Shown: one piece after another, positions 39,960-44,435 of the stretch
Layout of the letters: each line of letters starts with the position of its first letter
Position numbering within the stretch: position 1 is the first letter of the stretch
Notes under the pieces: generated by a model
The model's input: only the letters and a program-made list of their open reading frames with translations
The model's database searches: none
What the model was told of the DNA's origin: nothing
Made by a program: the position numbers and the translations under genes
DNA from: Bacteroidia bacterium
GTDB lineage: Bacteria; Bacteroidota; Bacteroidia; NS11-12g; UBA955
NCBI GenBank assembly: GCA_044357345.1
Contig: JBIKPR010000003.1
Coordinates: forward strand, 23,887-87,886
Length of the DNA stretch: 64,000 bases
Direction of reading: 5' to 3'

Positions 39960-41045
39960 ATGAGTGTAAATTCTAACAACAATTCAAAGCATGTTCTGTA
40001 CTATAATTTTGGTAAAGGATCTATTCAGCATTTACCAGAATTAGTAAAGGATATGCAAGGGTTTAAACTTTTTATTGTAGATCATTATTTTCAAAAGCAT
40101 GAACTAATTGGAAAATTGCCGATTAAAAGCGATGATATACTTTACTTTTTAGATACTACTTACGAACCTAAAACTTCAAAAATTGACGATTTGCTCTCAA
40201 GCTTTCTTTCTCAAAAGAATGGAGAGAAGCCAATTGTAATAATTGGAATAGGTGGAGGTTCTACCTTAGATACAGCCAAAGCCATTGCAAATTTGTATAC
40301 AAATCCGGGAAAGGCAGAGGATTATCAAGGCTGGGATTTAGTTAAAAATCAAGCCATTTATAAAATTGGTATTCCAACAATTTCGGGTACTGGAGCTGAG
40401 TCAAGCAGAACATGTGTTATGACAAATGCCAAATCAGGTCTAAAGTTGGGCATGAACAGCGATTTTACGATTTATGATCAACTTATTTTAGATCCTGATT
40501 TAAGTAGTTCTGTGCCTAGTGAACAGTATTTCTTCACTGGAATGGATACCTATATTCATTGTATTGAGTCATTAGCTGGTTCTCATAGAAATGCAATTGG
40601 TGATGCTTTTTCGCGTGAAGCATTGAATTTGTGTAGAGAAGTATTTTTGTCAGATGATATGATGTCAGATGAAAACCGCGGAAAATTGATGGTCGCTTCA
40701 TACCTCGGAGGTGTAGCTATAGCCAATAGTTATGTCGGTGTTGTGCATCCACTTTCTGCAGGTTTAAGTGTGGTTTTTGGAACCCACCACTGTGTTGCAA
40801 ATTGTATTATTTTAAATGTACTACAAGAATTTTATCCAACAGAATATTTAGAATTTCAGCAAATGCTCAAAAAGCAAAATATTCAGGTTCCTAAATTAGA
40901 TGGGGTTAATTTTTCAGAAGAGGAATTAAACAGATTATATGCTTCAAGTATTATACACGAGAAACCTTTGTCAAATGCTTTGGGAAAAGATTTTAAATCA
41001 ATTTTGTCAATAGAAAAAGTTAGTAAAATATTTAAAAATAGTTAG
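39960..41045 (+). CDS. Group III iron-containing alcohol dehydrogenase / dehydroquinate-synthase-like oxidoreductase (KdnB-like candidate)
   Basis: 361 aa. Motifs are IIGIGGGSTLDTAKAIA, PTISGTGAESSR and His-rich metal-site segments (MDTYIHCIES, VVHPLSAGL..GTHH). Confidence 0.7.
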   Translation: MSVNSNNNSKHVLYYNFGKGSIQHLPELVKDMQGFKLFIVDHYFQKHELIGKLPIKSDDILYFLDTTYEPKTSKIDDLLSSFLSQKNGEKPIVIIGIGGGSTLDTAKAIANLYTNPGKAEDYQGWDLVKNQAIYKIGIPTISGTGAESSRTCVMTNAKSGLKLGMNSDFTIYDQLILDPDLSSSVPSEQYFFTGMDTYIHCIESLAGSHRNAIGDAFSREALNLCREVFLSDDMMSDENRGKLMVASYLGGVAIANSYVGVVHPLSAGLSVVFGTHHCVANCIILNVLQEFYPTEYLEFQQMLKKQNIQVPKLDGVNFSEEELNRLYASSIIHEKPLSNALGKDFKSILSIEKVSKIFKNS

Positions 41046-41048
41046 ATT

Positions 41049-42227
41049 ATGGAATATAAAATAAATTTTAGTGGAACCGGTCATCGGTATACCGCAGAAG
41101 AAATTGAAGTAGTTGCTAGGGTAATGAATGAAGCAGACCCATTAACCCAAGGCAAATATAGGAACGAGTTTGAACAAAAGTTTTCGGAGAAAATGGGCAT
41201 TGAAAATTGTTTTGCGGTACATACTGCAACTGCTGCACTTGAACTAGCGGCTCAACTTTGTCAATTCAAAGTTGGAGATGAGTGCATTGCTCCTTCGCAT
41301 ACTTACACTGCTTCAGTTTATCCCTTTGTTAAAAAGGGGGCTAAAATAGTTTGGGCAGATATTGATTTAGAAACCAGAGTAATTACAGCAAAGCAAATTG
41401 AAGAAAAACTGACACCAAGAACAAAGGCTGTTATTGTGCCTCATATTTACGGTTTTATGACAGAAATGGAACCCATAATGGAATTAAGTCAAAAGTATGG
41501 TTTTTTAGTAATAGAAGATGTGGCACAATCAATGGGTACAGAATACAATGGAAAAAAAGCGGGTTCTTTTGGGCATTTTTCTGTATTTTCATTTCATTCA
41601 CATAAGAATATAACCACCTTAGGTGAAGGCGGCATGTTGGCTGTTAAAGATCCGAATGCGGCCAAAATAATTCCTGCATTAAGACATAATGGACATCGAC
41701 CATGGGATTTTAAGCAATCAGACCATTTTATTCCAGCAGGAATAAGTGTTGATTTGCCGTATTATAACGGAGAGCCTATACAGCCAAATAATTATTGTCT
41801 GGGTGAAGTGGAATGTGCATTAGGCACTAAAATGTTAGAACGTTTGGATGAGATTAATGATCAAAAAAGGGCAAGAGCAATATCATTTATTGATAGTTTA
41901 AAAGAATATCCTGAATTGGAGTTCCATAGAGTTGACTCAAAAAGACACAATTACCATTTACTTGTTGCGAGAGTGACAAAAGGGAATAGTTATGACTATT
42001 TAAGAAAAATGAACTATGAAAAGGGCATCAAATGCGTGGTACAGTATTATCCATTGCACCGTTACGACTATTATAAGAAATCTGGTTTTGGTGATGCAAA
42101 TGTTCCAAACACAGATTTATTTTACGACAATATGATTTCTTTTCCATTTCAGCATTGGATGTCGGAAGAAGAAATTGACTATATGAAAGAATCGATTGTA
42201 GATGTAATCAAATCACTTAGAGTATAA
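41049..42227 (+). CDS. DegT-family PLP aminotransferase (KdnA-like candidate)
   Basis: 392 aa. Motifs are GDECIAPSHTYTASV, VIEDVAQSMG and the lysine context FSFHSHKNITTLGEGGML. Confidence 0.8.
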   Translation: MEYKINFSGTGHRYTAEEIEVVARVMNEADPLTQGKYRNEFEQKFSEKMGIENCFAVHTATAALELAAQLCQFKVGDECIAPSHTYTASVYPFVKKGAKIVWADIDLETRVITAKQIEEKLTPRTKAVIVPHIYGFMTEMEPIMELSQKYGFLVIEDVAQSMGTEYNGKKAGSFGHFSVFSFHSHKNITTLGEGGMLAVKDPNAAKIIPALRHNGHRPWDFKQSDHFIPAGISVDLPYYNGEPIQPNNYCLGEVECALGTKMLERLDEINDQKRARAISFIDSLKEYPELEFHRVDSKRHNYHLLVARVTKGNSYDYLRKMNYEKGIKCVVQYYPLHRYDYYKKSGFGDANVPNTDLFYDNMISFPFQHWMSEEEIDYMKESIVDVIKSLRV

Positions 42228-42231
42228 ATAA

Positions 42232-43269
42232 ATGACATACATAATAGGAGAAATTGGACAGAACCACAATGGTTCGGTGGAAATAGCAAAGCAAATTATT
42301 GATTTAGTAGCCAAACCCGTGAGAGAAGAATTATTCGGGTTAGACCTTAAAAGAATGAATGCTGTTAAATTAACAAAAAGAGATCTTTCTCAAGAACTAT
42401 CAGCCAAAGCAATGCTTCAGCCATATAATTCACTTCATTCTTTTGGTAAAACGTATGGTGAACATAGAGCATTCCTTGAGCTAAGTGACGAACAACATTT
42501 TGAGATATATACATACGCCAAAAGTAAGGGATTAGATTTTGTTGAAACTTTGTGTGCTATAGGTTGCCTAAGCATATTGGACCATTTTACTCCTGATTAC
42601 TTAAAAGTAGCCAGTAGGGATTTGACAAATCTGCCTCTCTTAGACAAATTAGCAGAAACTAAAATTCCAATTATTTTGTCAACAGGAATGGCTGGTGAAA
42701 AAGAATTAAATGATGCTCTGGAATGCATCACAAAATACCACGAGAATATAACCATATTGCATTGTTTATCTGAATACCCATCACAATACAAAAACATAAA
42801 TTTAAAAACTATTTTATGGCTTAAAGACCATTATGGAAAGTATAGAATAGGGTATTCTGATCATTCAATAGGTATTGATATTCCAGTTGCCGCAGTTGCT
42901 TTGGGTTCGGAGGTAATAGAAAAACATATTACTTTGGACCGTAATATGAAAGGAACAGACCAAATTGGCTCATTAGGTCCAGATGGTATTTACCGAATGG
43001 TAAGAGATATTAGATGCTTAGAATTGGCATTAGGAGAAAAGAAGTTTTATATTGAAGACTCAGTTAAATCTGCTAAGGTTAAATTAGAAAGGTCAATTGC
43101 AACTAAAAGAAAAATTTTAAAAGGCGAAATTCTTATTGAGTCAGACTTGCATTTGTTAAGTCCTGGTGATGGATTTAGATGGTCAGAATTGGGAAATGTA
43201 GTAGGTAAAATTTTGAGTGAAGACATTGAAGCAAATGAAATAATTTATGCACAACACTTTACAGATTAA
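42232..43269 (+). CDS. NeuB-family nonulosonate synthase, NANS-like (9-phosphate-forming) subtype with a C-terminal SAF domain
   Basis: 345 aa. It has [12 protein letters not shown]. The segment [25 protein letters not shown] closely parallels human NANS PYTSKHSWGKTYGEHKRHLEFSHDQ as I recall it. It also has GYSDHS..I...[14 protein letters not shown] and a SAF-like tail. Confidence 0.8.
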
Positions 43270-43789
43270 ATTAGTAATAACAGATATAGATGGTGTTTGG
43301 ACTGATGGCGGAATGTATTATGACCAAACAGGAAATGAGTTTAAGAAGTTTAATACATCCGATAGTGCTGGTGTCTTATTTCTTAAAAAACTAAATATTC
43401 CATTAGTTATAATTACTGGAGAAAACACTTTGATTGTAGAAAGAAGAGCTAAAAAGCTTGGTATTTCATATTTATTTCAAGGCTGTAAAGACAAAGTAAG
43501 TGTTGCATCAAATTTATGTAAAGAATTAGGAATAGAATTGAATGAGGTTGCCTTTATCGGAGACGATATTGGAGACGCACAACTGTTGCAAAAAGTTGGG
43601 TATAGTTGTGCACCAGCGAATGCCCCTGAATATATAAAAAGACTAACCCATAAAACAACCATAAAAATGGGTGGCGATGGAGCCTTTAGGGAATTTATTG
43701 AAATACTACTTCAAGATTTAAATATGTTTGATACAGTTATAAATGAAATAGTAAAATCTGATGAAAACGATAGCAGTCATACAAGCTAG
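43247..43789 (+). CDS. KdsC-type HAD phosphatase (Kdo-8-P / KDN-9-P phosphatase family)
   Basis: 180 aa. Motifs are [20 protein letters not shown] and [13 protein letters not shown]. It overlaps the synthase gene by 23 nt. Confidence 0.75.
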
Positions 43790-44435
43790 AATGGGGTCAA
43801 GCAGATTGCCCAATAAGGCAATGTTGCATTTGAATGGACATCCTATTATAGAATGGGTGGTGTCAAGAGTTCAAAGGGCTAAGTTACTAGATGGTGTCAT
43901 TGTCGCTATACCCAATACCAAACAAGATGATGTTCTAGCGTGGTTTTTAAAAAGTAAAGGATTTGCGGTATACAGGGGTGACGAATTAGATGTACTAGGT
44001 AGAATGGTCAATGCAGCAAGAACTTTAGATGCAACTCATTTTGTGAGAATATGTGCTGATAATCCATTTGTGTGCTGGAACGCAATCGATGATTTAGTGG
44101 ATTATTTTAACCAATATTCACCTGATTATGCCTACAACCATATCCCTAGGGATAATCTGTATCCTGATGGTATTGGTGCCGAAATGACTGCAATGAAGAC
44201 ATTGGAAAAAATAAACGAACTTGCAACACTTGCCTCGCAAAGGGAACATTGCTTTAATTATATTTGGGAAAACGAAACCCAATTCAATATAAAGACCTTC
44301 AACCCACTTCTTCCCTCATTAAGAAAGCCCAACTTAAAGTTAGATATTGACACGATGGAAGATTATCTATACATAAGTAAAATAGAAGCAGGAATATCTG
44401 AACAATCAAAAGATATTATAAAGAATAAGTGTTAA
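43761..44435 (+). CDS. Cytidylyltransferase of the NeuA/KdsB/SpsF family (CTP_transf_3)
   Basis: 224 aa. The N-terminus is [21 protein letters not shown]. It overlaps the phosphatase gene by 29 nt. Confidence 0.75.

Follow-up and report, generated by a model that had tools for sequence, protein, structure and literature searches.

A compact group of five genes (positions 39960-44435) lies within a stretch of 64,000 nucleotides from a Bacteroidia bacterium (NCBI GenBank assembly GCA_044357345.1, contig JBIKPR010000003.1, positions 23,887 to 87,886), hereafter the window, and appears to encode a pathway for a nonulosonic acid (NulO). The first-pass annotation of this DNA had described five packed or overlapping genes, and all five are intact open reading frames (ORFs) on the + strand, with gaps of 3 and 4 bp among the first three and overlaps of 23 and 29 bp among the last three. 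Assignments were based on Pfam domains, on the curated equivalog cut-offs of NCBIfam, on PDB sequences for solved relatives and on Foldseek searches with an AlphaFold model. The first gene (39960..41045) encodes a KdnB-like Fe-dependent alcohol dehydrogenase (ADH) or oxidase of 361 amino acids (aa) with the domains Fe-ADH (2e-27) and ADH_Fe_C (5e-14). It is followed by the gene for a 392-aa pyridoxal phosphate-dependent aminotransferase (AT) of the DegT family, not of the KdnA type (41049..42227; DegT_DnrJ_EryC1, 1e-82), and by that for a 345-aa NeuB-family synthase (42232..43269; NeuB and SAF, 3e-64). This synthase belongs to the phosphosugar-using subtype, which includes NANS-like enzymes and synthases of the 9-phosphate (KDN-9-P) of 3-deoxy-D-glycero-D-galacto-nonulosonic acid (KDN). 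The last two products are a 180-aa KDN-9-phosphate phosphatase, a KdsC-like haloacid dehalogenase (HAD) of type C0 (43247..43789; Pfam HAD hydrolase and NCBIfam NF058599), and a 224-aa cytidylyltransferase (CT) similar to SpsF and KdsB (43761..44435; CTP_transf_3, 3.6e-23). These domains agree with the family calls of the first-pass annotation, and the peptide motifs that it quoted, including DIDGVWTDG and FSFHSHKN, are found in the translations. Among the curated NCBIfam families, only the phosphatase passes a cut-off; the ADH, the AT, the synthase and the CT each score below that of every family. The nearest homologs come from Bacteroidota. The same gene order recurs in three other loci (L008, L095 and L096) and the association of ADH, AT, NeuB and CT recurs across phyla, so the arrangement is not due to chance.

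The phosphatase reaches 247.3 bits with NF058599, the KDN-9-phosphatase equivalog (cut-off 180), and scores lower with the KdsC models (138-143 bits). It also matches the structure of BT1713 (3e81) with 202 bits. The DxD motif of the HAD family corresponds to D13 and D15, and residues E59, R67 and K70 align with Glu56, Arg64 and Lys67 of 3e81, which we take to be the KDN-9-P specificity elements of BT1713. The equivalog and the strong match to 3e81 support this part of the first-pass interpretation. The proposal that the synthase is of the phosphosugar-using subtype rather than a classical bacterial NeuB is also supported. The protein falls below the classical equivalogs (NeuB_NnaB, 255 bits against a cut-off of 400; PseI, 203 against 340), and its homologs at 71-74% identity carry the name KDN-9-P synthase in the Joint Genome Institute (JGI) annotation. 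Moreover, the plain CT-NeuB-HAD modules of a Parabacteroides sp. and of a Bacteroidales metagenome-assembled genome (MAG), L093 and L094, have synthases with 69-70% and phosphatases with 62% identity to those of the window. The synthase is nearer to human NANS (35% identity, 196 bits) than to the NeuB found in one of the cluster types described below, variant B (28%, 129 bits). In the aligned SxE motif, the window synthase has Asp where PseI has Glu. For the synthases of archaea and eukaryotes, a phylogenetic study describes an E134D change (PMC8208679), and we believe that the Asp of the window synthase occupies this E134 position.

Comparison with solved structures puts the ADH closer to KdnB than to any other characterised Fe-ADH, with 297 bits to the enzyme of Shewanella oneidensis (5k8c), 303 bits to that of S. 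denitrificans (3rf7) and 96 bits to the next Fe-ADH. The relationship to KdnB proposed in the first-pass annotation is therefore supported, and the tree places the window protein in a sister clade. A scan of one genome per species yielded at least 592 genomes with a KdnB-family gene, the closest match to the window ADH being 65% identical. We compared the neighbourhoods of the best 80 of these at least 592 loci, with 10-kb flanks each, and added further loci through exact-protein look-ups. In the neighbour-joining tree, a midpoint split separates two clades, clade 1 with the window gene and clade 2 with the Shewanella protein. The window ADH is 42% identical to 3rf7 versus 55-71% identical to members of its own clade. 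The window protein has the group III Fe-ADH fold, and the GGG of its GGGS nucleotide motif (G98-G100) and the metal ligands D196, H200, H263 and H277 are kept in both clades. On the other hand, ten positions are constant within each clade and differ between them; several lie beside the metal ligand H263, a pattern consistent with a changed substrate. Clade-1 relatives of KdnB, which is named an O2-dependent oxidase, also occur in strict anaerobes (Desulfovibrio, Nitratidesulfovibrio and Chlorobium; L028, L030, L038 and L039), and judging from this distribution the clade-1 enzymes may turn over with NAD(P)+ or another acceptor instead of O2.

The two clades differ sharply in their genomic context. 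Counting genes within 9 kb at loci with at least 6 kb of sequence downstream of the ADH, a NeuB-family gene was present at 19 of 21 clade-1 loci, a CT at 20 and a DegT AT at 19, versus one NeuB-family gene and no CT at 38 clade-2 loci. The gene immediately upstream of the clade-2 ADH is a KdnA ortholog (51-71% identity to 5k8b), and these genes, found in Desulfobacterota, Chitinophagaceae, Flavobacteriaceae and Thiomicrospira, are ordinary pairs for 8-amino-3,8-dideoxy-D-manno-octulosonate (Kdo8N), the amino derivative of 3-deoxy-D-manno-octulosonate (Kdo). At clade-1 loci, the AT invariably follows the ADH directly. This clade includes Campylobacter concisus, Nautiliales, Leptospira idonii, Thiomargarita, Methylococcaceae, Burkholderiaceae, Dechloromonas, Desulfovibrio, Chlorobium, Chthoniobacterales, Ilumatobacteraceae (Actinomycetota), Ozemobacteraceae and Roizmanbacteria, and clusters of its type occur in at least nine bacterial phyla. 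Comparative genomics hence ties the ADH clade of the window to clusters with NeuB and CT rather than to Kdo8N loci, in line with the link drawn in the first-pass annotation. NeuB-family synthases and CMP-transferases accompany the clade as a whole, and the ADH of the window is thus no Kdo8N enzyme placed by accident in a polysaccharide locus. These data also correct current annotation: the hundreds of genes automatically named "Kdo 8-oxidase" comprise two clades, one with a Kdo8N context and the other in clusters with NeuB and CMP-transferase genes.

The AT fits less well with the original proposal, which had drawn a parallel with KdnA. Although the lysine of the FSFHSHKN motif is present, the best PDB match of this protein is 7b0d (167 bits), and KdnA (5k8b) ranks only 19th with 112 bits. 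The first-pass annotation had regarded grouping with NDP-hexose or cyclitol enzymes as evidence against its idea, and the best matches are indeed generic sugar or inosose aminotransferases. This mismatch is softened by the fact that the same slot beside the clade-1 ADH holds a KdnA-like AT in 13 other species. Window-type ATs (51-78% identity) are found directly downstream of a clade-1 ADH in 14 loci, and KdnA-like ATs, 38-46% identical to KdnA, occupy this position in 13 loci. For comparison, the AT of L035 scores 279 bits to KdnA (next PDB entry, 142 bits) and that of L074 scores 657 bits. Most simply read, the slot adjacent to the ADH represents one role filled by two DegT subfamilies, each in about half of the species. 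As the clade-1 AT gene comes right after that of the ADH and its product resembles KdnA in 13 loci, the two genes would constitute an oxidise-then-transaminate pair embedded in NulO clusters.

Clade-1 clusters come in three arrangements. Variant A, with the order ADH, AT, NANS-like NeuB, HAD and CT, is that of the window and of L008, L095 and L096, the latter three carrying the CT as part of a 582-aa fusion. Variant B (L005, L006, L010, L012, L022, L024 and L029) has ADH and AT followed by a fusion protein of about 530 aa, a CT and a different NeuB. Variant C, in which ADH and a KdnA-like AT precede a family 2 glycosyltransferase (GT2), NeuB and CT, occurs, among others, in Ilumatobacteraceae, Burkholderiaceae and Dechloromonas. 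The fusion protein of variant B combines a nucleotidyltransferase-like N-terminus with a PseG-like C-terminus (146 bits, cut-off 153.6), a composition that would imply a different, NDP-sugar-based supply route for the same set of ADH, AT and CT. This protein is encoded at 12297-13919 in L006, 12913-14481 in L005 and 15036-16625 in L010. The comparison with L006 illustrates the point: its ADH shows 71% and its AT 60% identity to the window proteins, compared with only 28% for its NeuB, and it has the PseG-like fusion and no HAD. Because the same pair is kept across two different synthase routes, the ADH and the AT are expected to act after the synthase, on the ulosonic acid. As judged from these gene sets, enzymes tailoring a finished ulosonic acid should tolerate such a synthase swap, whereas precursor enzymes should not. 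Other genes accompany some of these clusters. In the one variant C locus that was annotated (L035, Ilumatobacteraceae), an HpcH/HpaI aldolase gene, a GFO/IDH/MocA oxidoreductase gene and a gene of the inositol monophosphatase family lie directly upstream of the ADH (7318-9971), and the Campylobacter locus (L004, L005) also ends in an HpcH gene.

The CTP_transf_3 domain of the window CT scores 82.9 bits against a Pfam cut-off of 22.6. The protein stays below all KdsB and PseF equivalog cut-offs, and among solved structures the cytidylyltransferase 6oew is its closest match. Its identity to the CTs of ADH/AT/NeuB clusters in other phyla is 47-53%, versus 32% to those of the plain KDN modules. 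By these identities, the window module is a mosaic, with the synthase and phosphatase of a plain Bacteroidales KDN module and the CT of the ADH clusters. We also considered that the CT might always co-evolve with the ADH and the AT, and rejected this idea because L008, L095 and L096 use the fusion of NeuB and CT. The 582-aa fusion consists of a weak NeuB-like domain and CTP_transf_3 (L008, 13859-15607; L095, 10881-12629; L096, 10863-12611), and is present in L022 as well.

On balance, we lean towards the reading that the module makes and transfers a CMP-activated amino derivative of KDN, with amination taking place after the synthase. From the gene identities, clade placements and neighbourhoods observed, we infer the substrates, the order of the steps, the position of the amine and the role of the CMP-sugar as donor as follows. 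The synthase would condense phosphoenolpyruvate (PEP) with mannose-6-phosphate to give KDN-9-P, from which the HAD phosphatase would release free KDN. The KdnB-like Fe-ADH would then oxidise a hydroxyl group of free KDN, most likely that at C9, to the aldehyde. Oxidation at C9 could occur only after the phosphatase step, as in the Kdo8N pathway, because C9 is phosphorylated until then. The DegT AT would convert the carbonyl of the oxo-KDN to an amine, giving 9-amino-9-deoxy-KDN, and the CT would activate this product to CMP-amino-KDN. Finally, the adjacent GT-B-fold protein, the adjacent family 1 glycosyltransferase (GT1) or both would add the sugar to the polysaccharide of the surrounding locus. 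C9 is the most likely position of the amine, though not a secure one. It is favoured because KdnB oxidises a terminal CH2OH group, because the characterised Fe-ADH families matched by the window protein are nearly all primary alcohol or aldehyde enzymes (glycerol dehydrogenase scores only 32 bits in NCBIfam), and because KDN has a single primary alcohol.

Several points weigh against this reading. Regiochemistry is not readable from sequence, and mannose-6-phosphate is assumed as the substrate by homology. The module contains no N-acyltransferase for the new amine, and the closest relatives of the window arrangement (L008, L095 and L096) have the 582-aa fusion in place of a window-type CT. The AT is not KdnA-like, and its nearest solved relatives use keto-sugars or inososes, an activity that would suit a secondary ketone no less than an aldehyde. 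The ten ADH substitutions, some of them beside H263, could affect both the length of the substrate and its register. Both observations favour a version of the pathway in which the amine is placed at a secondary position of KDN, for example C5, which would yield neuraminic acid, or C7 or C8, where certain bacterial nonulosonic acids carry a side-chain amine. The relatives in question (7b0d, 7b0m, ArnB, QdtB and PseC-like enzymes) act on ring ketones, unlike the aldehyde-using KdnA, and the ADH substitutions could reposition the substrate. An 8-amino nonulosonic acid has reportedly been found in the O-antigen of Tenacibaculum maritimum, another member of Bacteroidota, which also counts for this possibility. 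We nevertheless regard it as unlikely, since the nearest characterised relative of the ADH oxidises a terminal primary alcohol and the remaining family matches point the same way, the partner AT is KdnA-like in 13 species, and the module has no N-acetyltransferase, which the route to N-acetylneuraminic acid needs.

Amination before the synthase appears improbable. Here the ADH and the AT would act on a hexose precursor, a sugar phosphate or an NDP-sugar, as in the pseudaminic and legionaminic pathways, and NeuB would condense the amino-hexose with PEP. The best NCBIfam match of the AT is PseC, at 234 bits and below the cut-off of 423, and the PseG-like domain of variant B resembles the late pseudaminic pathway. 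Against this, the same ADH/AT pair (60-71% identity) accompanies two unrelated precursor routes, so that a precursor enzyme would need to handle very different substrates. In addition, the sole characterised member of the ADH family reportedly acts on a free ulosonic acid, which agrees with the PDB molecule names, and the module has no 4,6-dehydratase. A separation of functions, in which NeuB, HAD and CT make ordinary CMP-KDN while the ADH and the AT produce Kdo8N for the core of the lipopolysaccharide (LPS), or another sugar of the locus, seems more improbable still. The ~60-kb polysaccharide locus does contain several other amino-sugar pathways. However, the genuine KdnA/KdnB pairs belong to another clade, their gene order is reversed and only 0-1 of 38 loci have NeuB or CT nearby, whereas the clade of the window is linked to NeuB and CT at 19-20 of 21 loci and in at least nine phyla, including the Gram-positive Ilumatobacteraceae. 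As Gram-positive bacteria, Actinomycetota should have no LPS Kdo. The genes of the module also abut or overlap within one operon, which argues against unrelated roles.

The preferred pathway, with amination of KDN after the synthase, can be described as a Kdo8N pathway grafted onto a KDN pathway of the Bacteroides thetaiotaomicron type. KdnB and KdnA of Shewanella reportedly act on free Kdo, consistent with the molecule names of the PDB entries 5k8c and 5k8b. The window shares with this system an ADH of the KdnB family whose metal and NAD motifs are the same, a neighbouring DegT AT, and the logic of oxidising and then transaminating a 3-deoxy-2-ulosonic acid supplied by a PEP-condensing synthase and a KdsC-type phosphatase. 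Unlike in Shewanella, the ADH belongs to the sister clade, it precedes the AT instead of following it, and the AT comes from another DegT subfamily. Moreover, the window has its own NeuB-family synthase, HAD phosphatase and CT adjacent, which genuine kdnA/kdnB loci do not have nearby, and its predicted substrate has nine carbons versus eight. Since clade, gene order, partner AT and genomic context all differ, the module is not a KdnB/KdnA system in the strict sense. The idea put forward in the first-pass annotation, Kdo8N logic transplanted onto a NANS-type synthase, is therefore supported in part, for the KdnB-family ADH, the KDN-9-P phosphatase and the KDN-type synthase, and not for the AT, which is not of the KdnA type.

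The resemblance to the KDN pathway of B. thetaiotaomicron (synthase BT1714, phosphatase BT1713) is seen in the phosphatase, which passes the equivalog cut-off and matches the BT1713 structure. In contrast, the plain CT-NeuB-HAD modules of Bacteroidales lack ADH and AT and have another CT (32% identity) upstream of the synthase. With the pseudaminic and legionaminic pathways the module has in common a NeuB-family synthase, a DegT AT, a CMP-transferase and an amino nonulosonic acid destined for a surface glycan. In those pathways, however, the amines are put on an NDP-hexose after 4,6-dehydration and before the condensation, and C9 is a methyl group; the window module is devoid of dehydratase, N-acetyltransferase and NDP-sugar hydrolase, and its synthase and AT remain below the PseI, PseC and LegC cut-offs. 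Finally, a phosphosugar-using synthase followed by a dedicated phosphatase is also the principle of the animal NANS/NANP route, from which the window differs in being a bacterial operon with a KdsC-type C0 HAD instead of NANP and with two extra tailoring enzymes.

To our knowledge, all natural nonulosonic acid classes carry their amines at C5, C7 or, rarely, C8. If the proposed pathway is correct, a terminal-amino KDN would represent a new class of natural sugar that places a positive charge on an otherwise acidic residue. In Bacteroidota, such a residue recalls the immunomodulatory zwitterionic polysaccharides, and nonulosonic acids shape the recognition of bacterial surfaces by hosts, phages and lectins. 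The literature that we covered, which leaves out most subscription journals, contained no link between KdnB-like genes and nonulosonic acid clusters and no natural 9-amino nonulosonic acid, and that on the NulOs of Leptospira, Vibrionaceae and Tenacibaculum contained nothing on an association of ADH genes with NulO clusters. More tentatively, the clade-1 oxidases might mark a class of nonulosonic acids that is widespread, has gone unrecognised so far, occurs in at least nine phyla and is distinguished by an extra side-chain amine. Each of these acids would be served by a CMP-transferase of its own and by a new family of GT-B transferases. This class would be zwitterionic wherever the amine is left free. 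9-Amino-9-deoxy-KDN would be its Bacteroidota version, and other members would be expected in Campylobacter concisus, Leptospira, Desulfovibrio, Chlorobium and freshwater Actinomycetota.

The five genes are flanked on the + strand by two genes for candidate glycosyltransferases, with which they most likely constitute one operon module. Upstream, separated from the ADH by a gap of 11 bp, lies a GT1-family glycosyltransferase gene (38737..39948; Pfam Glycos_transf_1, 5.5e-19). A homolog with 31% identity precedes the ADH in L008, and a GT1 gene is directly upstream of the ADH in L095 and L096. Downstream, a gene at 44429..45688 encodes a protein that matches no Pfam or NCBIfam family and whose AlphaFold model (mean pLDDT, 92) shows a GT-B fold. 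In Foldseek, this model resembles UDP-sugar 2-epimerases and a bacterial polysialyltransferase with bound CDP (5wcn) with TM scores of 0.41-0.45, a generic GT-B similarity that cannot separate a transferase from a 2-epimerase-like enzyme. Homologs of this protein come after NeuB or CT genes in L006 and L007 (37% identity) and in L008 (28%), and just 31 relatives were found in a large protein collection. Residues H321, P322, E324 and K325 are invariant. The invariant His-Pro followed by Glu-Lys recalls the HP motif of bacterial sialyltransferases, which we treat only as a lead. Both flanking proteins are probably parts of the module, and the GT-B family is pointed to as the likely transferase for the activated sugar.

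Immediately upstream of the GT1 gene, a 528-aa ORF (37161-38747) with about six hydrophobic segments falls into none of the Pfam or NCBIfam families. It was considered as a counterpart of the ~530-aa fusion protein of variant B, and this was rejected, as BLASTP found no similarity between the two. A 50%-identical homolog adjoins ADH, AT and NeuB genes in a Bacteroidetes MAG at the base of clade 2 (L056). The ORF more likely encodes a membrane protein of the polysaccharide machinery and may be a dedicated polymerase or membrane transferase.

Beyond the module, the window consists of one long polysaccharide locus of about 60 kb, with nearly all genes on the + strand and a G+C content of around 33%, that stops before uvrA. 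Its upstream part holds several amino-sugar tailoring genes, two Asn-synthase-like genes, a UDP-sugar dehydrogenase gene and a decayed insertion sequence (IS) element. An IS3-type transposase is present as remnants (28723-29861), namely one HTH_Tnp_1 ORF and, at 29067-29456 and 29460-29861, two ORFs with rve domains. These remnants part the upstream from the downstream half of the locus, which suggests that it was put together from two blocks. A 53-aa N-terminal fragment of a UDP-glucose/GDP-mannose dehydrogenase (19157-19318), located about 5 kb upstream of an intact 425-aa copy (24743-26020), is probably a pseudogene left after rearrangement. Between 31.7 and 37.1 kb there are genes for a PRK-domain protein, a GDPD protein, two nucleotidyltransferases and a GT2. 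The first four (31704-36245), just 5' of the module, comprise a gene for a 706-aa protein whose C-terminal domain is of the PRK/uridine-kinase type, one for a GDPD-family phosphodiesterase and two for proteins with a nucleotidyltransferase fold; together they may constitute a pathway to a phospho- or glycerophospho-substituent.

On the 3' side of the module, the locus continues with a trio of FdtA, acetyltransferase and DegT genes, a carbamoyltransferase gene, several GT1 and GT2 genes and a Wzy-like gene. In this trio (46811-48986), genes for an isomerase similar to FdtA, an acetyltransferase of the hexapeptide type and a DegT aminotransferase lie side by side, the classic set for a dTDP-3-acetamido-3,6-dideoxyhexose. 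The glycan thus probably also contains 3-acetamido-3,6-dideoxygalactose (Fuc3NAc) or 3-acetamido-3,6-dideoxyglucose (Qui3NAc). A tailoring set of unusual richness at the start of the window (918-13541) includes two DegT genes together with PhyH-like, methyltransferase, RraA-like, formyltransferase, ATP-grasp and Aminotran_1_2 genes; with the carbamoyltransferase gene further downstream (50099-51973), it points to heavily N-acylated or carbamoylated sugars in the same locus. The DNA of the window is also present in metagenome assemblies.

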